A stretch of DNA of 64,000 nt from a virus. Taxonomy: Duplodnaviria > Caudoviricetes. The stretch is from positions 143,862 to 207,861 of IMG/VR virus record IMGVR_UViG_3300031555_003522. One strand, written 5' to 3'. A model generated the notes under the pieces. The model searched no databases, was not told the DNA's origin, and worked only from the letters and a program-made list of their open reading frames with translations. Positions 1-26,840 of the stretch are shown piece by piece (position 1 is the stretch's first letter; each line of letters begins with the position of its first letter). The position numbers and the translations under genes were made by a program.

Positions 1-121
1 AAATGGGGAGCGTCCTATAAACGGTAACAGAATATAGGATGATGATATAGTCTAATCTATATGGTGACATATAGCAGCTTACAAGCGGTATAAGATTAAC
101 GACCTTATATGAATAAAAATG
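1..121 (+). mobile_element. Group I self-splicing intron, 3' part only (window starts inside it); interrupts DNA polymerase motif A
   Basis: P3' AAATGGGGAGC, P8 hairpin, S element GATGATATAGTCTA, P9 hairpins, terminal G at 121 directly followed by TTT GCT TCG CTA TAC CCA TCT (FASLYPS). Confidence 0.85.
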
Positions 122-580
122 TTTGCTTCGCTATACCCATCTTTGATCCGTCAGTTTAATATAGCAGCTAATACTATTATTGGTAAGCTGATGATTAATG
201 ACAAAGTTCATGACAAAGAAAATATTTCTGATATGGATAACTGGACTAGAGCTGGTGCATTTATGGAAGATATTCAGTCTCAGCAGTGGCTAGAGTTTAC
301 TTCCAGATGGTTTGGACTGCCAGATTATACTGTTCTGTATCATGAAGTAGAGAGATTCTTTACGCAGATTGCTAATGCGTATCTCGGTCTTAGGGTCTAC
401 GAAAGAGATGGAACTATAGAGCCTATCACATTTGATAAAGATGGTCTTATGTGTGAGCCTATTGTATTTGAAGATAACGAAAGAAGAGAGGTTATAGATA
501 CCTATATCCCTCAGAATCTAAATAAATGGATGGAGTGGAGAAATCATGCAATTATGTATCCGAACCAGCAATTTAAATAG
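122..580 (+). CDS. Family B DNA polymerase, motif-A-bearing subunit of a split polymerase, last exon (ORF track 119..580)
   Basis: FASLYPS = PolB motif A (D-x-x-SLYPS) lacking its Asp, which should end the upstream exon; motifs B and C are in a separate gene at 20022-23908. Confidence 0.85.
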   Translation, partial: FASLYPSLIRQFNIAANTIIGKLMINDKVHDKENISDMDNWTRAGAFMEDIQSQQWLEFTSRWFGLPDYTVLYHEVERFFTQIANAYLGLRVYERDGTIEPITFDKDGLMCEPIVFEDNERREVIDTYIPQNLNKWMEWRNHAIMYPNQQFK

Positions 581-1444: not shown

Positions 1445-3856
1445 ATGGCTAGAAATGAAAGAGCTGCATCAGAAGCCAGTAAGAGACTACAGTCTATAGG
1501 TCAGGGTATTGCGTCTAATATGGATGCTCTATATAGAAGCACTTATATGACAACAACCACCCAGAGTAAAGACCTTCAGGATCTTACTGATAGAATTAAT
1601 GATAATATTGATCAAATAGTTGCTAGAAATAATGATGCTCATGGTATTCCTAGTGTTAGTACGCTGTATACCAGAATTGCCAGAAATAACTCAAAAGATC
1701 AGAAGAGTTCTGATTTTATAAATGGCTTAGAAAATATGTTTGATAATGGTATGGTTACAGATGATCTATATGACCTATTCATGAGTAATAGATATTTGAG
1801 AGAATTGGATAACGAAATAGATACCATTTGTAAATATATGCCTGATCTTGAAGAAGCATTGGCAGTTATGAAAGACTGTGTGCTTTCTGCAGATCACTTC
1901 TCCAAAGATTTTCTTAGCCTTACAACTACTTCATCTGGAGTTCAAGCAACTGTATTTTCCGAAAGGGTTAAAGACCTCAAGAAGAGATATAAACTTCTCC
2001 CTCTTGTAGAAGAGATATATGAAAATATGTCTAAATATGGTGAACAGTTTATCTATCGTGTACCTTATAAAGATGCTATAGGTAGACTATTATCTACAAA
2101 ACCAGATACTTCTCTTGTTATGCCTCATAGAGGATTGCATGAAAGTACTCAGGAAGAAGATAAAAACTCTCTGTTTATGCTTAGTATGAATAATGAATCC
2201 TGTACCATTATTGGCATGGATAATCATGAATATTTAAATGAGTCTGCGACTATTATTACAGAAGGTACAACTCATGTGTCTAATGGAGAGGATGTTACTA
2301 CTCCTATGCAGACAAGTATTCTTGATAAGAAAGAATCTTTCAATATAGGTATAGAAATATGTAGGTCTGGTGTCATAGAGAGTGTTATTTCTGGCTATAG
2401 AGATGCTATTGCTAAGAAAACAAAATACACAAATGAATCTATGATGAAAGCATATGCAGAATCTTCTAAGAAAAATATAGAAGCTAGTGGAAATATAACA
2501 CTTCCCAAAGATAAGACAGATGGTAGGATACTTACCAATGATGGTCTTATCGGAGGAAGTAGACCTGAACCTGTAAAAGTTGATCTTCCTGGTTGTGTTG
2601 TTAAAAAGCTTCGCAGAGATCATGTATATCCTATTTATATTGAAGATATATGTATGGGATATTATTACTTTGAACTCAGACAGACTGATGAAGCCGATGC
2701 TTTTATGGGCTTTAAGAATATATTGGGAGACGTAACCACTAATATGAGGAATAGTGGTAACGATGGTCGTACTCCCTTCAATGCTGTAGATAGCCAAAGA
2801 CAGGATAATACTATTAAGTATGTAGCTGCTCAGCTATCTAAATTTATTGATAAGCAGTTTGTAAATGCAAATCAGGATATTGGTAAAGAAATTTATATGA
2901 TACTGAAGTATAATGATCTTTTCAATACTCCTTCTATTGATTCTATCAAAGTTACGTTTATTCCTCCTGAAGATATCGTACATTTCTTCTTTAGACAGGA
3001 TCCGATAACCCATAGAGGTATTTCTGATCTTGAGAAATCTATGGTTCCTGCAAAGGTATATACTAGTTTGTATATCACATCTGCTATCGGTAATCTGACT
3101 AGAGGTTATGATAAGCGAGTATATTATGTAAAGCAAACTGTAGATACTAATATTGCTAAGAATCTACTCACAACTATATCTCAGATTAAACAGTCTAATT
3201 TTGGTATTAGACAATTCCAGAATATTAATCATATTCTAAATATTACTGGTAGATTCAATGATTTGGTTATTCCCACCAATGCTTCTGGAGATCCTCCTAT
3301 TCAGTTTGAGATTATGCCTGGACAAAATATAGAGGTTCCTACTGAGCTTATGGAAGAACTGAAGTCTAGTGCTGTTAGTAGTACTGGTATTCCTATTGAA
3401 ATTATTCAGGCTAGACAGTCTATAGACTATGCAATGCAGTTGACAATGTCTAGCTCCAAAGTTCTTAGACTTTGCTATAAGAGACAGGAGCTGTATGAAG
3501 AACAACTTGCTACATTAATAGCACCTATCTATAATTATCAATATGATGAAAATATTTCTATCAATATTGAACTTCCCCCTCCGACATTTATCAATGTGAC
3601 GAATACCAATCAGCTTGTAGATAATACTAAGAATTTGGTACAATCTTTTGTTGATGTAGATCTTGCTGGAGTGAATGATGATGCATTGAGACAGAAATAT
3701 AGTAAAGAGTTGTTCAAGCACTATATTGGTACTCATATGGACATCTCCAGACATCAGGATATTCTTGAAAGATGTAAAATAGAATTAGCAAAAGATAATG
3801 ATGAATCTCATAGTGATAATGCTGGAAATGAAAATACTGGAGACGACTATTATTAA
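1445..3856 (+). CDS. Portal protein
   Basis: 803 aa; T4/phiKZ portal-like segments KYGEQFIY, RGYDKRVYYV, DLVIP..IQFEIMPGQ; next to tube/sheath genes. Confidence 0.75.
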   Translation: MARNERAASEASKRLQSIGQGIASNMDALYRSTYMTTTTQSKDLQDLTDRINDNIDQIVARNNDAHGIPSVSTLYTRIARNNSKDQKSSDFINGLENMFDNGMVTDDLYDLFMSNRYLRELDNEIDTICKYMPDLEEALAVMKDCVLSADHFSKDFLSLTTTSSGVQATVFSERVKDLKKRYKLLPLVEEIYENMSKYGEQFIYRVPYKDAIGRLLSTKPDTSLVMPHRGLHESTQEEDKNSLFMLSMNNESCTIIGMDNHEYLNESATIITEGTTHVSNGEDVTTPMQTSILDKKESFNIGIEICRSGVIESVISGYRDAIAKKTKYTNESMMKAYAESSKKNIEASGNITLPKDKTDGRILTNDGLIGGSRPEPVKVDLPGCVVKKLRRDHVYPIYIEDICMGYYYFELRQTDEADAFMGFKNILGDVTTNMRNSGNDGRTPFNAVDSQRQDNTIKYVAAQLSKFIDKQFVNANQDIGKEIYMILKYNDLFNTPSIDSIKVTFIPPEDIVHFFFRQDPITHRGISDLEKSMVPAKVYTSLYITSAIGNLTRGYDKRVYYVKQTVDTNIAKNLLTTISQIKQSNFGIRQFQNINHILNITGRFNDLVIPTNASGDPPIQFEIMPGQNIEVPTELMEELKSSAVSSTGIPIEIIQARQSIDYAMQLTMSSSKVLRLCYKRQELYEEQLATLIAPIYNYQYDENISINIELPPPTFINVTNTNQLVDNTKNLVQSFVDVDLAGVNDDALRQKYSKELFKHYIGTHMDISRHQDILERCKIELAKDNDESHSDNAGNENTGDDYY

Positions 3857-3863
3857 AAAGAAT

Positions 3864-3893
3864 AATCCCCACTGGATAATTCCAGTGGGGATT
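3864..3893. terminator. Bidirectional terminator between convergent portal and tail tube genes
   Basis: AATCCCCACTGGA TAAT TCCAGTGGGGATT perfect inverted repeat. Confidence 0.8.
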
Positions 3894-3902
3894 TATATTT
3901 TA

Positions 3903-4760
3903 TTAGATACTGGTACGAGTAACAGAATCCTGAATCAGCTTAGTCTGAGCCAGACCACTATGAGCATCGCTAAGAGCAGCATAGTTGTAATCCCAGCTAT
4001 TACGGTGTACCATCTTGCTATTGGCAGAGGAGTTCATCCAATCGAGGATCTTCTTTGCACGAGCATTGATAGCGGAACCAGTAATGGGGAATCCACTAAA
4101 CTCAGCAGAGATTTCCTGGAACTGAACATCACCCTTATTGCCATTAAAGATAGACAACTGAGCGGTAGTGGGCATACAACCAACAAGGTAGACAGCTCTC
4201 TCAACCAGCAGACCAGTATTATCGGTATGCAGGTACAGGAAGCTAAAGCATTCCTTGTGGAAGCCAGCATCATTTGGCAGAATCTGTCCGTTTTCAAAAC
4301 CGATCATACCATTATAGGTCTTAAAACCGGTTGCAGGATCACGAACAGAACGCAGATACAGTTCATGCATCTTAGTAATAGTTGCACCAGACTTTTCCAT
4401 GTAGTTCATAGAGAAGTTGGAGCCACCCTGGCCATTAACCTTGGTAATGACATTCATAGCCTGGAGACCATTTTCGATAGGAGTAGAATCGGAACTCATA
4501 TCCTCCAGACCAGAGCCAAATCCACGGAATTCATACTCAAGAATATGAGTATAGGAATTAACCAGCTGAGCAACCTCAGTATCAGCTTCGGCCATCTTAC
4601 GCAAGAATTCGGGAATAGAAACCACGATCAGATAAGGATAACCACTCTCGTACAGATCAAACTGCTGAAGCTGAGTAAAGTCCGTAGTACCACGGAACAG
4701 CGTATAAGCAGTAATATCACGAGGGGTCTTCAGATCGGTAAACATATTATACTGACCCAT
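3903..4760 (-). CDS. Tail tube protein
   Basis: 285 aa directly downstream of sheath; strong codon bias; tube-like C-terminus (GCMPTTAQLS..EISAEFSG). Confidence 0.65.
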   Translation of the reverse strand: MGQYNMFTDLKTPRDITAYTLFRGTTDFTQLQQFDLYESGYPYLIVVSIPEFLRKMAEADTEVAQLVNSYTHILEYEFRGFGSGLEDMSSDSTPIENGLQAMNVITKVNGQGGSNFSMNYMEKSGATITKMHELYLRSVRDPATGFKTYNGMIGFENGQILPNDAGFHKECFSFLYLHTDNTGLLVERAVYLVGCMPTTAQLSIFNGNKGDVQFQEISAEFSGFPITGSAINARAKKILDWMNSSANSKMVHRNSWDYNYAALSDAHSGLAQTKLIQDSVTRTSI

Positions 4761-4784
4761 AAGTATTATTCTCCTTTCTTAAGA

Positions 4785-6638
4785 TTAAGATTCGATCTCT
4801 TCGGTAGAGAGAGCAACAACCTTAATCATTTCGGTCTGGATAAAGTCCTTATATGCGACCTTCAGAACAGCATAGAAGATCTTGTTGACAGAATAAGTTG
4901 CATCCTGGACGTACTCCAGAGTCAGAGTATTAAAGTTGCTACGATAAGCGGCAATGACTTCTTCAACATCAGCCTTATAAGCCTCGAGATCCTCACCCTC
5001 AAAGAAGGTATAACGGATAGCAGGGCAACGGGTACGGATAGCCTTAACAACTTCCTGAATACCCATGACGTTGTTGACAAAAGACCACTGACTGTACTTC
5101 TCCTGAGAGGTGTACAGAGCTTCAATAACCAGACGGTTGTCGATATAGGAAGCATAGTTTACACGCATATCCTCAAGGATTTCCTTCTGGTTGACAGTGG
5201 GACAGATAACAGGAGAGAAGGACAGAGTGCCATAAATGGCATTGTCAATACTCATGTTATACTTCATACCAGCAGTAGGCAGAATCCGACCATTGTTAAT
5301 ATGCTGGACAAGCTTGATAGCAATGTCGTAGCCAATGGTGACAGAAATCTGACGCTTGGTATAGGGATCAATGATATCATAAGACTGAGGATAGGTTGCG
5401 CAGAACATGCTCTTAGCCTCATCCTTACAATTAGATTCGATAGCATTGATAGTGGTAACCTTCAAGCCCTGATCACGGAAGTACATAAAGTCTTCACGGA
5501 ACATCGCCAGAGCTTCGATGGCACGCTTAACCTTTGCAGGATAGTTAGCATCGACAATAGCATCAATCTTATACTGATCCATATTGTAGATGACATTATC
5601 GAAAGTGCCGTTAAATGCTTCAACAGCCTGATCGGCCCAAGCATCAACAGCTTCGATGGGGTAGTCACCAAATGCGCCATTGGAACCACCAGACAACATC
5701 TGACCATACTCATACTGAAGGTTAATGCCATCAGCATCGAAAGTAATATTGGGCAGATCGGTACCACGATTGGTGCAGCCAAACAGCACATCGTACTTAT
5801 ACATAGCAGCGGCATCAATAGTGTCGTCGCCAGTAGCAGCAGCCAGAGCTTCAACATAAGCATCCAGCTGATCGGGGTATTCAATACACTGCAGCTGAGA
5901 GGAATTGGTAGAAACCATTCCCTGCAGAGAGATATTGACACCATTAGCAATCAGAGCATGGTTAGCACTGAAGGTCATAGATTCAACCTCAATATTACCT
6001 TCAAAGACCTGAAGAGTGTACAGAACATACTCCAGAGACTTAGAGACCTTATAGTTGGGGGTGATCTTAATACGCTTCTTGCTAGTACCACGACCATTGT
6101 CAGAAATGACATACAGAAGATACTCGCCCTCTGCCAGATTTTCGAGAATTGCATCAGCAGCCTCTTTGATAGTTGCGGTATTTTCTGCAGACTTGATGGA
6201 ATAAGTGACCTTATTCACAGTCTTGGAAACCATATAGGGAGTCTCAGTAACCTCAACAGTCTGGTTACCCTCGCTGTCAACATACAGCAGAGCGCCAGTT
6301 GCATCGGTACCCTGAACTTCGGTTTCCTCCTGAGTGATGGCGGCAACAATACCCATATTCGCCAGGGTTGCATCTTCAGCTACCAGACGCTTACACAACA
6401 GCTCTGCACCAGAGTTGATGGACATAGCGGCCTGCAGCAGAGGCTGACCATGACGCTTGAAGGAGATACTCTTGCCATACATCTTAAAGAAATCTTCGCC
6501 AGAGATACGGGTCCATGCTTCAGTACCCTTATCAGAACTAAATACAGCACAATACAGAGGCATATTACGGACTTCCGTAATAGGCAATGTAGAAATGCCG
6601 CTTTGGTCTTCATATTCAGCAATGAAACCAGGATACAT
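4785..6638 (-). CDS. Contractile tail sheath protein
   Basis: 617 aa; sheath-like features (MYPG start, LSGGSNG, IVDANYP, AMFREDFMYFRDQG); highly expressed codon usage; late promoter at 6713-6724. Confidence 0.8.
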   Translation of the reverse strand: MYPGFIAEYEDQSGISTLPITEVRNMPLYCAVFSSDKGTEAWTRISGEDFFKMYGKSISFKRHGQPLLQAAMSINSGAELLCKRLVAEDATLANMGIVAAITQEETEVQGTDATGALLYVDSEGNQTVEVTETPYMVSKTVNKVTYSIKSAENTATIKEAADAILENLAEGEYLLYVISDNGRGTSKKRIKITPNYKVSKSLEYVLYTLQVFEGNIEVESMTFSANHALIANGVNISLQGMVSTNSSQLQCIEYPDQLDAYVEALAAATGDDTIDAAAMYKYDVLFGCTNRGTDLPNITFDADGINLQYEYGQMLSGGSNGAFGDYPIEAVDAWADQAVEAFNGTFDNVIYNMDQYKIDAIVDANYPAKVKRAIEALAMFREDFMYFRDQGLKVTTINAIESNCKDEAKSMFCATYPQSYDIIDPYTKRQISVTIGYDIAIKLVQHINNGRILPTAGMKYNMSIDNAIYGTLSFSPVICPTVNQKEILEDMRVNYASYIDNRLVIEALYTSQEKYSQWSFVNNVMGIQEVVKAIRTRCPAIRYTFFEGEDLEAYKADVEEVIAAYRSNFNTLTLEYVQDATYSVNKIFYAVLKVAYKDFIQTEMIKVVALSTEEIES

Positions 6639-20021: not shown

Positions 20022-20724
20022 TTAGAACTGAATCATATTTGTAGAATTATTATTAGAGCCACCTCTAAATATTCCGATAGATTCTATCGGGAAACCCTTC
20101 AGATTGTTATTAATGATTTCATCATAATTAACAAATGGAAGTATCCAAGCAGGAACTGGTTCATTTAGAGGAATAGCTATAGCATCTATTCCAGTAGCAT
20201 ACTCTTTCTGCTTCATAAGCTCCACAGCCTTTTCATATACATAAGGATGAGACTCTCTAATTCTATCAATATTCTTAGGGGTTATATTAACTTTAGCAAC
20301 ATCGATAGAATTCCGAATACTCATATCCAATGCTTCTGTCCCAGGCTCATGAAGAGCATTATAAGCTTGAGATGCTACTATACCTTGAATTCTCATGGGA
20401 TTTTCATATGCTGATAGAGATTTTACCTTAAGAGGCTTAAAGAATTTCTTCTCACCACTCTGAATAGATTGATATATTTTCTTTTCCTCTTTAGCCAAAT
20501 CTCTAAGAACAACAATAGGATCTATAGATTCCACATTCAATATATCTTCTGCAAGTATTCGCTTTAAGTCAGCCTGAATAGTTGGATTGACTGTAGACTT
20601 AACAAATACTTCCATGCCTTTTGCATCAATAGATTTTGCATCAGGAACCTGGTTTCCTTCCTGAAGCTCAACCTTATATGCATAGTGTTTCTTTGCATGA
20701 CTAGATAGAAGAACACGCTTGAAT
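20022..20724 (-). CDS. DNA polymerase exon 6 (KKHY motif, thumb)
   Basis: Reads FKRVLLSSHAKKHYAYKVELQEG..KGMEVF into ORF 20022..20615. Confidence 0.85.
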
Positions 20725-23700
20725 CGTTTATTACTTTATATCACTATAAAGACTAGACTATATCTTCATCTTAAATACTATTACCATATTTGAGATGCTC
20801 CCCATTTCGAACTCTATCAAGAGCCCTACTCTACTCGGTTATTCTCATAGATCTTTCTTCTATGATATCCTTTCGATAGTCGTTGAACCTTCCTCTATTG
20901 AGGCTTGGCTGCTGATTGTCTCAATGAGAGTTCCCAGCAATTAAAGGAGATTCTACATAATGTCACCACTATGCAGCCCTATTCTTAAGGAATTCGTTCT
21001 TCATTGTAATTAGGCATGCACGCTCATTATCAGAGTGAGCATTTGTGCAGTATCTATCCATAAAATCATTCAAAAGAATACCTACACAATATGCAAGAAT
21101 ATTTATAATGGAATATCTTAATCCATCCTGAGGTATAATTACCATTGGGTCAACTAATCTATCCATCTCAATCATATCATCATCAACAAAACTATATTCT
21201 GTAACCTTTCCAATTACAGGTTCTGTCTTTATTTCTCCATCATCGATAAACGTAGCAGCATCTACATTTTGTGTCTTAATCTTCATAGGAATCTCACAAC
21301 ACATTTGTCTTACATACTGATACCATCCATCAAATGATACAATTGCACTCGCTTTGTTCATATAGGATCGCAACTCCATACAGTTCTCTTATGAACTTCT
21401 ATATGTTTCCATATAGGCCAGACTATATCATCACCCTACTATGGGTGCCTCCCATTTCGATTTAAAAGGTCTTATTTGGACATCGCCTTACCCCATTATA
21501 AGCTTGGGCTCTACTCTACTAAGTTCATCTATAGATGCTTTTCGATAGTCGTTGAACGTTCCTCTGTGCGAGGATTCGCTGCTGATTGTCTTTTATAAAT
21601 TAATAAGAAGATTTTCCAGCAATTAGAGAGGTTATCGACGCATGTTTCCATGCAAAGGGACGTAAATATCTTCATCCGTGTCCTGAATAATACTGACAGA
21701 TCTGACTAGAGAATCCATCTTAGCCAATCTATCAATAATCTGCTTATTATAATATACATACTCATACAAGATATCTGTTAGAGCTTTAAGCGGCTCTATA
21801 ATATTCTCTGGAGGCTCATTAGGATCCATAAATGGAGCATCGAGACTCTGAAGTATGAATAGTATAGCTTGTGTGACAGGAGCGTTATCAATGAAATGAT
21901 ATAGATTATTCTTATAGAAGAGTCTATCGAGTTCATCTTGATTGAGCTTAGATAGAATTTCCCAAATTATATGCATTTCATCTTCACTAGGCACCCATCC
22001 ATATCCAGTACTAGAAAGTAACTGGAAGAAGGTTTCTTCAATAGAAGCATGAATAGTAATAATACCATTACTATTGAAATGATGCTCTTCTGTAAGCACC
22101 GTATGAATAAATTCAACGAGTTCATTCATGGAACTCATTGGTACATTATTATTTAAGAAAGATTCTAGGAATAGCGCGGCAGCACTATTGCAAGATCTAC
22201 CTTGAGTTGTAACACTGGAAGCAGTATAAAGATTATAGAAAATACAAGAATACTGCCCAGTAGCTCCATAAACAATATATTCAAGTGGTTCATTACTCCA
22301 CCCAGTTCTCTTATGAACTTCTTTAGCTTTCACCAAAGTTTAGACTATATCTTCATCCATAAAGGATGTCCAGTACAGGATCTCATGATTTGAGACCTCT
22401 TAGTCGTTGAACCTTCCTATTTCTAGGCTCGGCTGCTGATTGCCTATTGTACCATCCTTCTACTATTTCCATTTAGGCAAGAAGGCTTTAAGGTGTCCCA
22501 GCAATTCTCTGGATTTAATCGATACCATTACTGGTAAAGTGGACCTTAGTTAATCCATTCATCTGGAGCTTTAAAAATACCATCATTTTCATGATGGGTT
22601 AGACTATATCTTCATTCATTTAAGAATGGTCTCTGTTTCGAGCATTAAGCCCTACGTCTTTCGACTAGTCGTTGAACGTTCCTCTAAACAAGGCTTCGCT
22701 GCTGATTGTCCAATCTCTATATTTTCAAACATTCACGATTACTCTTTCAAGTTGCGTTGTAGTTATAGAGCTCTAAGGAGTTTCCAGCAATTAAGAGACT
22801 TTAACGACACCAATGGATTTAATTTAGCGTCGATCTTACGCAAGTACCTCATATCGCTATGAGGGCTAGACTATATCTTCATCTATATCTCTATTACCAA
22901 GATATAGATGCTCCCCATTTCGAGTTCACTAGAACTCTACTCTACTCGGTTATTCTCATAGATCTTTCTTCTATGATATCCTTTCGATAGTCGTTGAACC
23001 TTTATAAATCAGAATCAGTAATACAGAATTTCATATTAGTTTTTTCTTTCACAACTATGGCTACAATCTGATATTCATCTCTGTATACTATTTCAAGATT
23101 AGAACCATCAGACTCTAATCTTATCACATTGATGCTTTTATTCAATGCCGCTTTCTTTATTTCTCGAATAGCTTTATTGAATTTTCGATTACCTTTCTCT
23201 GTAAAGTAAGATATAGTACCATGAAGTATATCAAAAGGTCTTTCTAAATATCTATCAAAATACCATGATAATCTAAATGCTTCATCTTCATCGAAGATAT
23301 CATCGAGACCAACAAGAATTCCAGTATGTGGTCTACTACACCCAGATTCATATTCATATCTATAATACACATATCTCACTTCCTTTCTGATTTATACTTG
23401 GCTGCTGATTGTCTCAGTGAGAGTTCCCAGCAATTAAAGGAGATTCTACATAATGTCACCACTATGCAGCCCTAAAATTAAGGAGTAGCTGAAGTAGATT
23501 ATATTTCTCAAAATCTTCAGATCCTTTAGGATACTTGAACATTTCTTTCTTCATAGCTTTTCTATCATTTATAAAGCCATCGATCATTCCATACAGTGGA
23601 TTAGGAACAGTTCCGTGTCTCTTAAACAATACACCATAGGAAGTTATAATAGGTTCTTTATCCATGATATAGTTTGCCATATAACTCAAGGTAGAGTTGA

Positions 23701-23908
23701 TTTGTTTGTGGGTATAGTTATTATCCACCACCACAGGAGTATCTTTAAAATGTTGCGAAATAGACCAATCTATTGCAGCAGATAATTCTCCCTCAGATAG
23801 TAGCGGGAAGTTAAAGTGCAGCATATCCATACATATTCGCTTGTATTCTGCTAGTGCTTTTACATCCGGATATGTCGCATATACTGTTCTATTCGTTATA
23901 AAACCCAT
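20022..23908 (-). CDS. Family B DNA polymerase catalytic (motif B/C) subunit, spliced from 6 exons: 23908-23481, 22838-22826, 22559-22553, 22272-21674, 21349-20988, 20724-20022 (703 aa)
   Basis: Exon lengths 428+13+7+599+362+703=2112 nt in frame; reconstitutes QLLLKIDANGFYGATG (motif B), QDTDSAIV (motif C) and KNEFLFKR..KKHYA. Confidence 0.9.
20725..20987 (-). mobile_element. Group I intron pol-I5 (263 nt, no ORF)
   Basis: P AATTGCTGGGAA, Q AATCAGCAGC, R GTTCAACGACTA, S AAGATATAGTCT; P1 CCU/GGG with U.G; P10 GAAU/AUUC; ends in G. Confidence 0.9.
20988..21349 (-). CDS. DNA polymerase exon 5
   Basis: SAIVSFDGWY...ITMKNEF; part of ORF 20969..21379. Confidence 0.85.
21350..21673 (-). mobile_element. 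Group I intron pol-I4 (324 nt, no ORF), splits DTD|S
   Basis: P/Q/R/S elements present; P1 GGAU/GUCC; terminal G followed by AGT (Ser). Confidence 0.9.
21674..22272 (-). CDS. DNA polymerase exon 4 (YG of motif B to DTD of motif C)
   Basis: YGATGQYSCIFYN...SIIQDTD; part of ORF 21632..22336. Confidence 0.88.
22273..22552 (-). mobile_element. Group I intron pol-I3 (280 nt, no ORF)
   Basis: P AATTGCTGGGA, Q AATCAGCAGC, R GTTCAACGACTA, S AAGATATAGTCT; P1 UGGAU/GUCCA; ends ..ATATTG. Confidence 0.88.
22560..22825 (-). mobile_element. Group I intron pol-I2 (266 nt, no ORF)
   Basis: P/Q/R/S present; P1 GACGCU/GGUGUC; P10 AAUCCAUU/AAUGGAUU; ends ..CCAGATG. Confidence 0.88.
22839..23480 (-). mobile_element. 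Group I intron pol-I1 (642 nt) carrying an ORF in the P6 loop
   Basis: P/Q/R/S present; P1 CCU/GGG; P10 AUUUUA/UAAGAU; core nearly identical to pol-I5. Confidence 0.9.
23002..23379 (-). CDS. Intron-encoded protein of unknown function (no homing endonuclease motif recognised)
   Basis: 125 aa with AAAGGAAG RBS, enclosed by a 12-bp stem (23003-23014 / 23385-23396); no LAGLIDADG, GIY-YIG or HNH motif seen. Confidence 0.7.
   Translation of the reverse strand: MRYVYYRYEYESGCSRPHTGILVGLDDIFDEDEAFRLSWYFDRYLERPFDILHGTISYFTEKGNRKFNKAIREIKKAALNKSINVIRLESDGSNLEIVYRDEYQIVAIVVKEKTNMKFCITDSDL
23481..23908 (-). CDS. DNA polymerase exon 1
   Basis: ..NDRKAMKKEM..YNLLQLL, pre-motif-B helix; AGGAGAG RBS; AACT-N6-TA at 23936-23947. 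Confidence 0.88.
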
Positions 23909-24047: not shown

Positions 24048-24503
24048 ATGATTTTTAAGAATGATGCTCCTAATGACGCTTTCAAAGAGAGCGTTCTTGG
24101 TGGAACTAATGTAGTTATGGAAAATACTCTTCGCGATCCTAATCAGTATCGTGAAGCTGTTCTTTTTGAAGCCCTTGCAGGTATGCCTGCTAAGCGTATT
24201 CGCGAATTTGTCATCTCTCCCGAAGCTAAGATGATGGTTAATGAAGGTATTATGAAGCAGGAGGCAATCGATCGTCTTGCTTCTCATCATGATAATAAGA
24301 TCCTTAATACTACCATTTGCCAGCTTGCTAAGGAAGCAGATGACCCGCTGTGGCAGGAATTTGTTGCTGCTCGCATCCAGGAACGTAGGGTAATGAACGA
24401 ATTGCTCGAAAAGTATGGTGCTCAGGCTCATACTGTTGCAGATAATGCATATGAGAATTTTGTTGCCCCCAACCTGCCTAAATATTTTGATGATAATGCC
24501 TAA
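24048..24503 (+). CDS. Hypothetical late protein (probable head protein)
   Basis: 151 aa; GGAGG RBS; AACA-N6-TA at 24003-24014; xxE-S/A/G protease-type sites. Confidence 0.65.
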   Translation: MIFKNDAPNDAFKESVLGGTNVVMENTLRDPNQYREAVLFEALAGMPAKRIREFVISPEAKMMVNEGIMKQEAIDRLASHHDNKILNTTICQLAKEADDPLWQEFVAARIQERRVMNELLEKYGAQAHTVADNAYENFVAPNLPKYFDDNA

Positions 24504-24620: not shown

Positions 24621-26840
24621 ATGGAAAGTGCAAAAGAATTAGGGTGTTTAAGATACCCAGAAAACTATGGTATGTATGCCGACATCATAGAAGGTAAGCA
24701 AGTCTGTATTCATACAGATGATCTTACTACTGGCACTTGGGACAGACATTATACATCTGTGTTAAATCTATTTAAAGATGGAATTGCTACAGAAGAAGTC
24801 CAGGGTGCCTTTATTCATGTACACTTTATAGATGGAGTAGATCTTGAGATTGCTCTTACAGATTATTTGCTTAATCTTATTATGTGGAATATGCTTATAA
24901 GAACGGGAACCCTTATCTGTTCTTATCATGTATTTTTCGCCGATGAGATCAAGAAAGATACAATTAAGGATTATATTGATAAGTTTCTTATTGATGAAAA
25001 TCGTAAGAGATATACTAATATGGAACTTAATAACATCATTGACGATACTCTTTATAGAATTCATGATATAGATGAATTCGCATTCTTCTTTGCAAATACT
25101 GTTAATCTTGAAGATAATGTATTCTTGATGCAGAGATGTGAAGAATTCAATGAATGTATGCATGCAGATTTGTCTGGTGTAGCTATTGAAGATGTAAAGT
25201 CTGTTGGCATGGGATATGCTAATAAAGCTATCCATATTATGAAGAATGCTAGTCAATATCTTGGATTCGATCACTGCTTAGCGGATGCATGTAGAGCATC
25301 AGAAGGCATTAACCCTAAACAGTTTAAAGAATTTACTATTAATATTGGTAGTAAACCTGATGGTCATGGAGGTATCTTCCCAGCCATTATCAACAAGTCT
25401 TTTATTAATGGTGGTGTTTCTACACCATTAGACTATTTTATTGAGTCTTCTACAGGTCGTACAGCTCAGATAATCAAGTATAATAACGTTGGTTCTTCTG
25501 GTCATTTTGCACGGCTTCTTGGACTTAATAACATGGATTCTTATTTGAATGAGAATCCAAATTATGACTGTTATAGTCGTAATTTCTTGGTCATCACTAT
25601 CAAGGATAAGAAGACCCTTAAGATGCTTAATAACAGATATTATAGACTCAATCCTAGGGGTAAAGAGTTGTTAATATCTGCATCGAAAGATAAGCATCTT
25701 ATAGGAAAAACAATTTATCTTAGATCTCCAGTTACTTGTGCATCTGCTGCAAGAGGTCAGGGAATCTGTTATAAATGCTATGGTGATTTAGCTTATACTG
25801 TCTATGATGCAGAGGTGCAAGCTGGTGTCAATATAGGCCGTATTGCTAGTGAGACACTATCATCTAGCCTAACCCAGAAATTGTTGTCTGCTAAACATCT
25901 TCTCGAAACATTTGCAGAAAAGGTTTCTTGGGTTAGAAAATTTAATGAACTCTTTGAAGTTGAAGGTAATGTGATTAAGCTTAATTCTGAAATTGAATAT
26001 AAGGGATTAAGATTAATAATTGATCCTGAAATGATTGAATTAGAGAATGAAGAAGATGACGATCTTGGATTTTCTGATGATGATGAGGAAGGCGGCGCAC
26101 CTATCTATAATGAGTATATTGTAGATTTTGATGTTATCGACGAGAATATTCCTGAATATCATCATATCTCAAATGATAAAAACGTTAAACTTTATATCTC
26201 TAATGAATTGAGATCTATTATTCGTAGAAAAGGTGAGCCAATAGAGGGAAAGCATTTTATAGATTTCACAGATATTAAGGATGCTCCTATATTTATTATG
26301 CCCATTCAGAATAATGAACTCTCTAAAACTCTTGAGCACCTTGAAGGATTGCTTAATAAAAATAATACGATGAAAGGTATGAATCTAAACCAGCTTCTGC
26401 AGTCTCTTATTGACACGGTTATTGAAGGTAGACTTAGTGTAGCATCTACTCATCTTGAAGTAATTCTGTCAAATCAGGCTCGAGATCCTGATAATATTCT
26501 CGAAAAACCTAAGTGGTTCTTGTTTAATCCTGGTTATGAGATTCTATCTCTTAATAGGGCTCTTACATTGAACCCTGCAGTTACTATATCTTTGAGTTAT
26601 CAAAAGGTAGGTAAGTCTCTATATAGTCCTATTACATTTAAGAAGAAAGGTTCTTCTTTTATGGATCTATTCTTTATGGAGAAACCGCAATATGCAATTA
26701 GTGGAAAAGAGCCTCCTGTTAAAGATGAATATATTCCTACTCCTGGAGAGCTCTATGAACCTATTACCTTTATTGATGATCCAGATAAAGTTACAGTATC
26801 TGCTCAATCTCTTTCTGATGATGAGGAGGAAGAGGAATAA
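24621..26840 (+). CDS. Multisubunit RNA polymerase beta'-like C-terminal subunit (probable non-virion RNAP)
   Basis: LRSPVTC..GICYKCYG zinc site, NIGRIASETLSSSLTQKLLSAKH trigger loop, THLEVILSNQ; bridge-helix-like SSGHFARLL. Confidence 0.88.
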   Translation: MESAKELGCLRYPENYGMYADIIEGKQVCIHTDDLTTGTWDRHYTSVLNLFKDGIATEEVQGAFIHVHFIDGVDLEIALTDYLLNLIMWNMLIRTGTLICSYHVFFADEIKKDTIKDYIDKFLIDENRKRYTNMELNNIIDDTLYRIHDIDEFAFFFANTVNLEDNVFLMQRCEEFNECMHADLSGVAIEDVKSVGMGYANKAIHIMKNASQYLGFDHCLADACRASEGINPKQFKEFTINIGSKPDGHGGIFPAIINKSFINGGVSTPLDYFIESSTGRTAQIIKYNNVGSSGHFARLLGLNNMDSYLNENPNYDCYSRNFLVITIKDKKTLKMLNNRYYRLNPRGKELLISASKDKHLIGKTIYLRSPVTCASAARGQGICYKCYGDLAYTVYDAEVQAGVNIGRIASETLSSSLTQKLLSAKHLLETFAEKVSWVRKFNELFEVEGNVIKLNSEIEYKGLRLIIDPEMIELENEEDDDLGFSDDDEEGGAPIYNEYIVDFDVIDENIPEYHHISNDKNVKLYISNELRSIIRRKGEPIEGKHFIDFTDIKDAPIFIMPIQNNELSKTLEHLEGLLNKNNTMKGMNLNQLLQSLIDTVIEGRLSVASTHLEVILSNQARDPDNILEKPKWFLFNPGYEILSLNRALTLNPAVTISLSYQKVGKSLYSPITFKKKGSSFMDLFFMEKPQYAISGKEPPVKDEYIPTPGELYEPITFIDDPDKVTVSAQSLSDDEEEEE

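Follow-up and report, generated by a model that had tools for sequence, protein, structure and literature searches.

The polymerase locus and its spliced product

In this uncultured gut jumbo phage, the sole replicative DNA polymerase gene occupies the minus strand between positions 23908 and 20022 of the window (the whole 64,000-nt stretch of DNA analysed here) and comprises six exons and five group I introns, three of which are placed in motif B, one in motif C and one just before the KKxY motif (Table 1). None of the exons contains an internal stop or a frameshift, and once joined they form an open reading frame of 2112 nt with a single stop, encoding 703 aa. The junctions read QLL(L)/KIDA/NG/FYG, DTD/S and NEF(L)/FKRVLLSSHAKKHY (slashes mark splice junctions), and the product contains the restored motifs KIDANGFYG (motif B, K-x3-N-x2-YG), QDTDS (motif C, DTDS) and KKHY (KKxY). 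An earlier note on this DNA had claimed a single family-B polymerase of 703 aa, interrupted in QLLL/KIDA/NG/FYG, in DTD/S and before KKHY; both the product and these placements are borne out.

The 703-aa product is a predicted divergent family-B DNA polymerase, namely the catalytic subunit of the AR9 g152 type. Exon 6 matches the Pfam family PF20286 (divDNApol) at 57.3 bits (cut-off 25.7; profile positions 467-700), exon 4 aligns with positions 154-285 at 20.2 bits, which alone is below the cut-off, and PHROG 2927 is matched by exons 1, 4 and 6. As anticipated in the earlier note, the spliced product aligns colinearly with AR9-type polymerases, from end to end with AR9 g152, BpSp gp217, S6, SA1, phiR1-37 g167 and the homologue at locus L021. 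The latter is intronless (710 aa), agrees with the 703-aa product at every junction and also contains the 47-aa clade-specific insertion of exon 5, which is genuine protein. In searches with exons 4 and 6, identity to AR9 and MarsHill-type phages was only about 26-32%. In the closest relative, L027, the spliced coding sequence is likewise 2112 nt long, and the exons of the two phages differ with a dN/dS of 0.037 at a dS of 0.72, which argues that the polymerase gene is not a pseudogene. The contig, which is 84% complete, contains a single divDNApol gene as its only catalytic PolB gene, and no family-A polymerase (PolA) was found in it; it is therefore reasonable to suppose that all five introns would have to be spliced for replication to occur.

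The surroundings of the gene have an AR9-like synteny, with a small virion protein upstream, an ORF in the RNAP beta' position and a separate exonuclease/motif-A subunit. The last lies at 141.3-144.4 kb of the genome, as in a split-polymerase arrangement, and the gene of this companion PolB subunit is itself interrupted in motif A (DFD/FASLYPS) by a sixth group I intron. In full, this intron covers genome positions 142840-143982 (1143 nt) and bears an HNH_3/NUMOD4 ORF. The position of the 739-aa ORF is that of the RNAP beta' gene in AR9, BpSp and L021; by this position and its likeness to the L021 ORF, it is a putative divergent RNAP beta'. Another cluster of five intron hits is present elsewhere in the same genome.

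Table 1. Features of the polymerase locus and of the companion subunit gene (window positions)
Feature	Position	Strand	Description
Sixth group I intron, 3' end	1-121	+	terminal G at 121
Companion PolB subunit, downstream exon	122-580	+	starts FASLYPSLI (motif A); colinear with BpSp gp206
Exon 6	20022-20724	-	703 nt with stop; KKHY and thumb
Intron 5	20725-20987	-	263 nt; group I; exon UCCU, guide AGGG; ORF-less; 3' splice site 20725
Exon 5	20988-21349	-	362 nt; includes the 47-aa clade-specific insertion
Intron 4	21350-21673	-	324 nt; group I; exon GGAU, guide GUCC; 49-nt 3' tail; ORF-less
Exon 4	21674-22272	-	599 nt; motif B remainder through DTD (motif C)
Intron 3	22273-22552	-	280 nt; group I; exon GGAU, guide GUCC; 48-nt two-hairpin 3' tail; ORF-less
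Exon 3	22553-22559	-	7 nt, AAUGGAU
Intron 2	22560-22825	-	266 nt; group I; P1 GACGCU/GGUGUC
Exon 2	22826-22838	-	13 nt, U AAG AUC GAC GCU
Intron 1	22839-23480	-	642 nt; group I; ORF in P6 loop; exon UCCU, guide AGGG
Intron-1 ORF	23002-23370	-	122 codons; GTG start 23370; AGGA 11 nt upstream
Exon 1	23481-23908	-	428 nt; aa 1-142 plus 2 nt; ATG 23908, GGAG ribosome-binding site upstream
151-aa ORF	24048-24503	+	matches a virion-protein PHROG
739-aa ORF	24621-26840	+	putative divergent RNAP beta'

Intron cores, splice sites and occupancy in relatives

A scan with the Rfam covariance model RF00028 (gathering score 50 bits) retrieved four of the five introns, each over model positions 1-253: intron 2 at 94.3 bits (22580-22835), the best of the five, intron 5 at 92.2 bits (20734-21000), intron 4 at 88.1 bits (21399-21683) and intron 3 at 75.7 bits (22321-22562). 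Intron 1 was recovered as two half-matches (23273-23497, 22 bits; 22847-23016, 36.6 bits), each below the gathering score owing to the 395-nt ORF insert in P6. Without this insert, intron 1 shares 88% identity with intron 5, and P8 and P9 contain compensatory changes between the two; its nt 1-636 are 87% identical to the site-5 intron of L027. Five group I elements are thus present on the minus strand where they had been claimed. The RF00028 alignments stop 8-49 nt upstream of the proposed 3' splice sites. A resemblance to subgroup IA2, to which typical phage group I introns belong, is seen in core stretches with 83-96% matches to Twort-like and AR9 introns and in the two-hairpin 3' tails of introns 3 and 4.

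Empty alleles of all five sites exist among relatives from gut metagenomes, and the nucleotide alignments end exactly at the predicted exon ends, with BLASTN breakpoints precisely at CDS nt 448/449, 1047/1048 and 1409/1410; these alleles fix the exact splice sites that had been proposed. For instance, exon 1 is contiguous with exons 2-3 in L027 and L026. L027 has empty sites 1 and 2, and L026, with sites 1, 2, 3 and 5 empty and one intron, has the same enzyme. Site 4 is empty in P0003, P0004, P0024, P0049, L021, L031 and L033, and the empty alleles of site 5 read NEFLF(R/K/Q)RV (L026, L030, L034, L021). Other sites are occupied in relatives: L030 has a homologous intron at site 2, and sites 3, 4 and 5 are occupied in a close relative as well, by ORF-bearing introns. 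HNH_3/NUMOD4 ORFs are found at sites 3 and 4 in L026, L027 and L033; intron 3 corresponds, without an ORF, to the HNH-bearing introns in L027 and L033, and intron 4 to the HNH_3-bearing ones in L026 and L027. Of the nine loci compared, this phage's alone has an intron at site 1. Either a gain in this lineage or a loss in that of the relative would account for sites 1 and 2. In the clade as a whole, at least eight insertion sites are used in the polymerase gene, with one to five introns per genome, the maximum being reached in this phage.

At the positions set in this way, every intron has the U.G 5' site and the terminal G claimed in the earlier note: a U paired with G in P1 immediately precedes the 5' splice site, and the last nucleotide before the empty-site breakpoint is G. 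P1 pairs exon CCU with AGGG in introns 1 and 5, GACGCU with GGUGUC in intron 2 and (U)GGAU with GUCC(A) in introns 3 and 4. P10 comprises 4-5 bp in introns 1, 3 and 5 (GAAU/AUUC in intron 5) and is negligible in intron 4 (-0.7 kcal/mol), while AUCCAUU of intron 2 pairs with the entire exon 3 (7 bp, -7.7 kcal/mol). The two smallest exons are used twice. In exon 2, nt 1-5 act as P10 of intron 1 and the final 6 nt as P1 of intron 2; in exon 3, all 7 nt act as P10 of intron 2 and UGGAU as P1 of intron 3. Two of these pairings covary with the exon. The exon GGAU and guide GUCC of site 3 are replaced by exon GGGU and guide GCCC in L027 and L033, and the site 2 P10 AUCCAUU/AAUGGAU becomes ACCCAUU/AAUGGGU in L030, which indicates that the pairings are under selection.

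Taken together, the gene is very probably a catalytic PolB gene interrupted by five canonical group I introns, whose ligated message would comprise 2112 nt and encode 703 aa. For each intron, a guanosine would attack after the U of the P1 U.G pair, and the 5' exon would then attack after the terminal G, resulting in exon ligation. All five are presumed to splice efficiently in vivo. Because exon 3 belongs both to P10 of intron 2 and to P1 of intron 3, these two reactions would be mutually exclusive in time and hence sequential.

Origin of the introns and competing readings

The introns are very probably selfish mobile elements gathered at the most conserved codons of the polymerase. They represent at least three lineages, one with exon UCCU and guide AGGG (introns 5 and 1), one with exon GGAU and guide GUCC (introns 4 and 3), and intron 2 as the third; intron 1 is an ectopic copy from the site-5 family. 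Introns with guide GUCC occur at four different sites, all ending in GGAU, and those with guide AGGG at two sites ending in UCCU, whereas the 3' exons are unrelated among the sites of a same guide lineage. This is the pattern expected of reverse splicing rather than of endonuclease homing, and it occurs here in a phage gene that codes for protein. One could accordingly view the polymerase gene of the clade as a natural record of guide-directed intragenic intron transposition, the 122-aa ORF of intron 1 as a new family of mobility or splicing proteins and the 7-nt exon as imposing an obligatory splicing order; we consider this view possible but doubtful.

The 122-aa ORF is also central to the proposal, which we consider unlikely, that the introns are not autonomous in vivo and need a protein helper, the ORF possibly encoding a maturase that acts on related introns lacking an ORF. 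This ORF, which begins with ATG in relatives where the present phage has GTG, is conserved (dN/dS of 0.10 relative to the L027 copy) and moves with introns of the UCCU-guide family in several phages. It is a predicted conserved protein outside known families: no Pfam or PHROG match and no PDB sequence match was obtained, and no nuclease domain is recognisable. Its AF2 model has a pLDDT of 86.5, and fold searches with this model yielded nothing better than a Foldseek E of 0.2 or a VIA Z of 3.3, and no lead in the Atlas; it could still be a nuclease, and nothing ties its fold to RNA binding. Moreover, the intron cores score as complete group I ribozymes, and L026, L030 and L034 have polymerase introns with no such ORF noticed among the ORFs viewed.

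Ordered or conditional splicing might instead gate polymerase output, whether by way of the 7-nt exon or by exon skipping between the similar introns of pairs 3/4 and 1/5. Exon 3 is indeed common to two mutually exclusive helices, and PMC10136302 reports exon skipping between similar introns in Twort orf142. Yet occupancy varies freely between close relatives, from one to five introns over at least eight sites, a pattern that marks selfish gain and loss rather than a conserved switch, and the one-intron relative makes the same enzyme. A regulatory pile-up of this kind is quite improbable.

There is even less reason to suspect a decaying gene, in which at least one insertion, most plausibly intron 1 or 2, does not splice and the polymerase is a pseudogene in a metagenomic variant. 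Such a suspicion may arise from the two empty sites of L027, from the occupancy of site 1 in this phage only and from the nature of the contig, a metagenome assembly whose viability is unproven. However, the exons are open and under strong purifying selection, intron 2 has the top score and a 7-bp P10 that covaries with the exon in L030, intron 1 keeps its compensatory P8 and P9 pairs and an ORF under purifying selection, and the contig has no other polymerase; this makes decay highly improbable. Finally, the idea that some 3' splice sites coincide with the ends of the Rfam model can practically be dismissed: it is in frame only for intron 5, where Rfam aligns G 20734 as the terminal G and the 9-nt shift would add NKR before FKRVLL, but every empty-site allele lacks this insertion, P10 suits 20725, the site-5 introns of L027, L033, L032 and L029 end in G immediately before AUUU or AUUC, and for the other four introns the frame would be broken or a stop created.

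Interpreted as five spliced selfish introns, the locus has consequences for annotation. The polymerase is present in public protein collections only as fragments of 115-349 aa, which implies that replication genes of this human-gut jumbo-phage clade are mis-annotated; the exon map given here is the correction. When the sixth intron, in the partner subunit's motif A, is counted as well, a mobile element adjoins every catalytic motif of the replicase, which is consistent with a role in competition between co-infecting phages. The clade also offers a compact natural experiment, with one and the same intron found both with and without an ORF, covariation of exon and guide, and exons of 13 and 7 nt that act simultaneously as coding sequence, P10 and P1. 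The colonisation of new sites (by endonuclease or reverse splicing), the order of tandem splicing and exon skipping by look-alike introns are thereby made testable.

Comparison with known systems

Several group I introns in one phage gene, including a near-identical pair, and a micro-exon are reminiscent of Twort orf142, which has three introns, two of them near-identical paralogues, and a 23-nt exon between tandem introns (Landthaler & Shub 1999, summarised in PMC10136302). Compared with that account, the present gene has five introns and exons of 13 and 7 nt, and two competing helices take up the whole of the 7-nt exon; exon skipping, which was shown in Twort, is only a conjecture here. Uncultured gut phages of other lineages, the crAss-like Zeta and Jug phages, have 14-18 group I introns per genome and fragmented core genes that defeat gene callers, for instance an MCP in five fragments; the available portions of these sources (PMC7886860, PMC12880540) describe no micro-exons or catalytic-motif triplets. 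HNH-bearing group I introns are known to invade phage DNA polymerase genes in the Bacillus phages SPO1, SP82 and Bastille, where the ORFs encode HNH nicking endonucleases (Bastillevirinae survey, PMC11878797); HNH_3/NUMOD4 ORFs likewise occur in the polymerase introns of L026, L027 and L033. The polymerases of those Bacillus phages belong to other families, however, with no more than three introns in any gene, whereas most introns here are ORF-less.

Related introns at several sites of one polymerase gene were also described in Bodo saltans virus, in which a 'parental' intron with an endonuclease seeds 'offspring' introns elsewhere in the same essential genes, polr2a and polr2b, a situation read as selfish spread or as competition between viruses (Deeg, Chow & Suttle 2018, PMC5871332). 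That case concerns a eukaryotic giant virus and an RNA polymerase gene, with splicing confirmed by RT-PCR; furthermore, the ectopic copy (intron 1) retains its ORF here and the copy at the ancestral site (intron 5) has lost it. AR9- and MarsHill-like phages represent the same type of lineage, in which PolB is split and there are two multisubunit RNAPs. [quoted passage not shown] The annotation of the Machias polymerase joins three pieces, and neither of its two interruptions matched RF00028 in our scan. AR9 g152 is intronless, unlike the polymerase gene of the present phage, which originates from gut metagenomes.

The intron density, called extreme in the earlier note, does stand out among published phages (at most three introns per gene in the literature surveyed), but phenomena of this kind were already known. 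What appears to be new here is the use of at least eight sites within one clade, the ectopic copy with a conserved ORF in intron 1 and the sixth intron in motif A. The five-intron gene is thus an extreme case of a habit known from AR9-like phages and giant viruses.

Exon map and product of the interrupted polymerase gene

The window forms the final 64 kb of a 207,861-bp IMG/VR viral contig (84% complete). The minus strand of the window carries four ORF fragments from 23908 to 20022, and Rfam assigns the stretches between them to group I introns. The earlier note had called five such introns, and all five are borne out: four match RF00028 at its gathering threshold, and the fifth, intron 1, was recovered by a more sensitive scan as two half-matches flanking an ORF that occupies the expected position of the P6 loop. 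Once a 395-nt insert is taken out, intron 1 is 88% identical to intron 5, and where the two differ in P8 and P9 the changes are compensatory. When the locus was compared with phage genomes by megablast, only short intron-core matches came up. Joined at the coordinates proposed earlier, the six exons give the expected 703-aa product (2112 nt, a single terminal stop); introns make up 46% of the gene span.

Features of the two polymerase genes (window coordinates unless marked as genome)
Feature	Position	Strand	Length (nt)	RF00028 match
Exon 1	23908-23481	-	428	
Intron 1	22839-23480	-		23273-23497 and 22847-23016 (half-matches, sensitive Rfam scan)
Exon 2	22838-22826	-	13	
Intron 2	22560-22825	-		22580-22835, 94.3 bits (gathering threshold)
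Exon 3	22559-22553	-	7	
Intron 3	22273-22552	-		22321-22562, 75.7 bits (gathering threshold)
Exon 4	22272-21674	-	599	
Intron 4	21350-21673	-		21399-21683, 88.1 bits (gathering threshold)
Exon 5	21349-20988	-	362	
Intron 5	20725-20987	-		20734-21000, 92.2 bits (gathering threshold)
Exon 6	20724-20022	-	703	
Partner PolB subunit gene (spans window start)	1-580, reaching upstream to genome 141.3 kb	+		

Exons 4 and 6 match Pfam PF20286 (divergent family-B DNA polymerase) and PHROG 2927, and tblastn matches include the catalytic subunits of AR9, PBS1, BpSp, Staphylococcus jumbo phages and phiR1-37. The spliced product is colinear over its entire length with five proteins of this type, as had been predicted for AR9-type polymerases, and the alignment confirms the proposed placement of three introns in motif B, one at DTD/S and one before KKHY (slashes mark junctions). 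Motif B reads KIDA/NG/FYGATG where homologues have KLLANSFYGAT, the motif C junction is QDTD/SAIV and the last junction is MKNEFL/FKRVLL..KKHY. Unlike the window gene, AR9 g152 and BpSp gp217 are uninterrupted; both have as neighbours a gene for a divergent RNAP beta' and one for a small virion protein, an arrangement that the window appears to share. A 41% identical homologue in a 259-kb viral contig (L021) is a continuous 710-aa gene with the same residues at each junction, and an Rfam scan of its locus gave no intron match. A 47-aa insertion in exon 5, considered as a hidden element, was rejected: it is in frame, too short to be an intron and kept in the intronless L021 protein. Between the exons and those of the gut relative L027, whose spliced CDS is also 2112 nt, dS is 0.72 and dN 0.027 (dN/dS 0.037). 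The 84% complete contig contains no further divDNApol match and no family-A polymerase. The polymerase gene is very unlikely to be a pseudogene.

As in AR9-like phages, the polymerase is divided between two genes, the partner gene encoding the exonuclease domain and motif A. Its upstream exon ends with ..NCVDFD at genome 142839 and is followed by a group I intron of 1143 nt, which contains an HNH_3/NUMOD4 ORF and has its terminal G at window 121; the downstream exon restarts with FASLYPSLI at window 122, so that the gene is split directly after the motif-A aspartate (DFD/FASLYPS). BpSp gp206 is colinear and runs without a gap over this junction (..DNCVDFDLAALYPSI..). With this sixth intron in motif A of the partner and five in the catalytic subunit, none of the replicase motifs A, B and C is left uninterrupted, and neither is its KKxY region.

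Eight more RF00028 matches lie outside the window (genome 54185-57443, 95764-96103 and 107796-108430), five of them clustered within 3.3 kb at 54-57 kb and two merely 20 nt apart. In Staphylococcus phage Machias (L002), the polymerase CDS (2078-4368) is annotated as a three-piece join; the locus has no RF00028 match at E <= 0.01, and these two interruptions, which thus have no Rfam confirmation, may be of a different kind or too divergent for the model. The N-terminal PolB subunit of Bacillus phage BpSp (L035) is annotated as two CDSs, gp207 and gp206, and the 280 nt between them (1384-1663) may be an unannotated intron.

Splice sites and empty-site alleles

The U.G 5' sites and terminal G reported previously are seen at all five introns. 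The 5' site CCU/ of introns 1 and 5 pairs with AGGG, its terminal U opposite G; GACGCU/ of intron 2 pairs with GGUGUC, and GGAU/ of introns 3 and 4 with GUCC. The Rfam alignments fall short of the 3' splice sites by 8, 20, 48, 49 and 9 nt (introns 1-5), and the extra 48-49 nt in introns 3 and 4 folds into two hairpins. The Rfam ends were rejected as genuine 3' splice sites: in four introns they would lead to a frame break or a stop codon, and that of intron 5 would insert NKR, which is absent from every empty-site allele.

The exon/guide pairings covary between relatives. At site 3, the window exon AAUGGAU faces guide GUCCA, and L027 and L033 combine AAUGGGU, a synonymous change, with GCCCA in P1; at site 2, the window P10 guide AUCCAUU faces exon 3 (AAUGGAU), and L030 combines ACCCAUU with AAUGGGU. 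These two covariations show that the pairings matter. In exon 2, the first 5 nt form P10 of intron 1 and the last 6 nt P1 of intron 2, without overlap. All 7 nt of exon 3 form P10 of intron 2 (-7.7 kcal/mol), and the final 5 nt of this exon double as P1 of intron 3. These two helices are mutually exclusive, so exon 3 would not be available simultaneously to intron 2 for its second step and to intron 3 for its first; the two introns could splice in either order.

Exon 4 was compared with 5.8 billion proteins and found 58 relatives (47-100% identity), every one a fragment of 115-349 aa. P0008 is uninterrupted across sites 1-3 (..QLLDKIDANGFYGA..) and ends at DTD; P0003, P0004, P0024 and P0049 continue through site 4 (DTD-SAIVSFDGW) and end in a NEFLxxRAA read-through tail, the same as that of window exon 5. 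Among viral contigs, exon 4 recovered six loci (41% identity) and exon 6 no relatives. In the gut relative L026 (~71% amino-acid identity), nt 56-1047 and 1048-2112 of the spliced CDS are each contiguous, and its single intron (1208 nt) is at site 4. In L027 (87-89% nucleotide identity), CDS nt 1-446 is contiguous and introns lie precisely at 448/449, 1047/1048 and 1409/1410. Each of the five proposed junctions thus has a matching intronless allele at nucleotide resolution.

Intron lineages and the intron-1 ORF

Occupancy was compared at nine loci, the window and eight relatives. The clade has at least eight insertion sites in the polymerase gene, five of them within ~30 nt of motif B, and the window phage carries the highest number of introns.

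Occupied insertion sites in the polymerase gene
Locus	Sites
Window	1, 2, 3, 4, 5
L027	3, 4, 5
L026	4
L030	2, 4
L033	3, 5
L031	3b (after FYG), 5
L034	1b (after KI), 4' (IQD/TDS)
L029 (272-kb Hadza gut contig)	1b, 3b, 4', 5
L032	5, plus one further interruption

In L032 (3369-5846), tblastn matches to aa 1-178 and aa 148-470 overlap across a 975-nt gap, and the proteins P0037 and P0041 begin with MNNNVPFG; together these suggest either that part of an exon is duplicated or that introns have one more insertion site, after ..ESF.

Introns 3 and 4 lack ORFs but correspond to introns in L027, L026 and L033 that bear HNH_3/NUMOD4 endonucleases. Because intron 1 is 87% identical to the L027 site-5 intron over its full length, ORF included, it is a site-5 lineage member copied to an ectopic position; the window site-5 intron has itself lost the ORF. 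The GUCC-guide lineage occupies four sites (3, 3b, 4' and 4), each ending GGAU, and the AGGG-guide lineage two, ending UCCU. A 4-nt guide match is not enough to account for site choice, as the CDS has 18 GGAT and 15 TCCT, occupied only in catalytic motifs, and the contig encodes no reverse transcriptase, which could aid reverse-splicing mobility. We therefore keep two possibilities: spread by reverse splicing, or endonucleases of relaxed target specificity, with selection for splicing acting afterwards. The case for reverse splicing into ectopic sites is still circumstantial (PMC3984707).

The intron-1 ORF encodes 122 aa and is preceded by AGGA. Its start is most likely GTG 23370, where relatives carry ATG. 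An ATG at 23372 (window 23244-23372, minus strand) is ideally spaced from the AGGA, yet opens a frame of only 42 codons; the conserved 122-codon frame begins two bases past it, leaving start choice ambiguous in this phage. The ORF has 13 homologues, all metagenomic, a homologous ORF lies in the site-1b intron of L029, and dN/dS is 0.10, indicating purifying selection. The L029 site-3b intron (4575-5014) holds an ORF for a different small protein of 70 aa, which starts MEKTILIDNL and shows no evident kinship to the 122-aa family. The fold of the 122-aa protein is predicted confidently (pLDDT 86.5); no credible family was found in Pfam, PHROGs, PDB sequence search, Foldseek/PDB, VIA-wide or ESM Atlas searches. 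A degenerate GIY-YIG domain (YRY...GIL) was rejected, the putative catalytic Glu being variable and no GIY-YIG structure appearing among fold matches. The protein may act in splicing as a maturase or in homing as an endonuclease of a new family, or its gene may be cargo.

Comparison with known multi-intron genes

Several group I introns in one gene are reported for Twort orf142, with paralogous introns, a 23-nt exon and exon skipping (as summarised in PMC10136302). In Bodo saltans virus, parental introns seed offspring introns inside polymerase genes (PMC5871332); there splicing was proven by RT-PCR, and for the window gene it is predicted from sequence. AR9 and MarsHill-like phages have numerous intron-split genes, including DNA polymerase, with varying exon boundaries (bioRxiv 10.1101/2020.12.14.422802). 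Bastillevirinae polymerases have at most three introns (PMC11878797), and crAss-Zeta and Jug phages 14-18 per genome (PMC7886860, PMC12880540). Both the observation of the earlier note and its interpretation hold, the window gene being an unusually crowded case of a known phenomenon. To what is known, it adds a single replicase with five plus one introns, exons only 13 and 7 nt long, direct covariation between exons and guides, an ORF-bearing intron copy at an ectopic site, and an uncharacterised intron protein.
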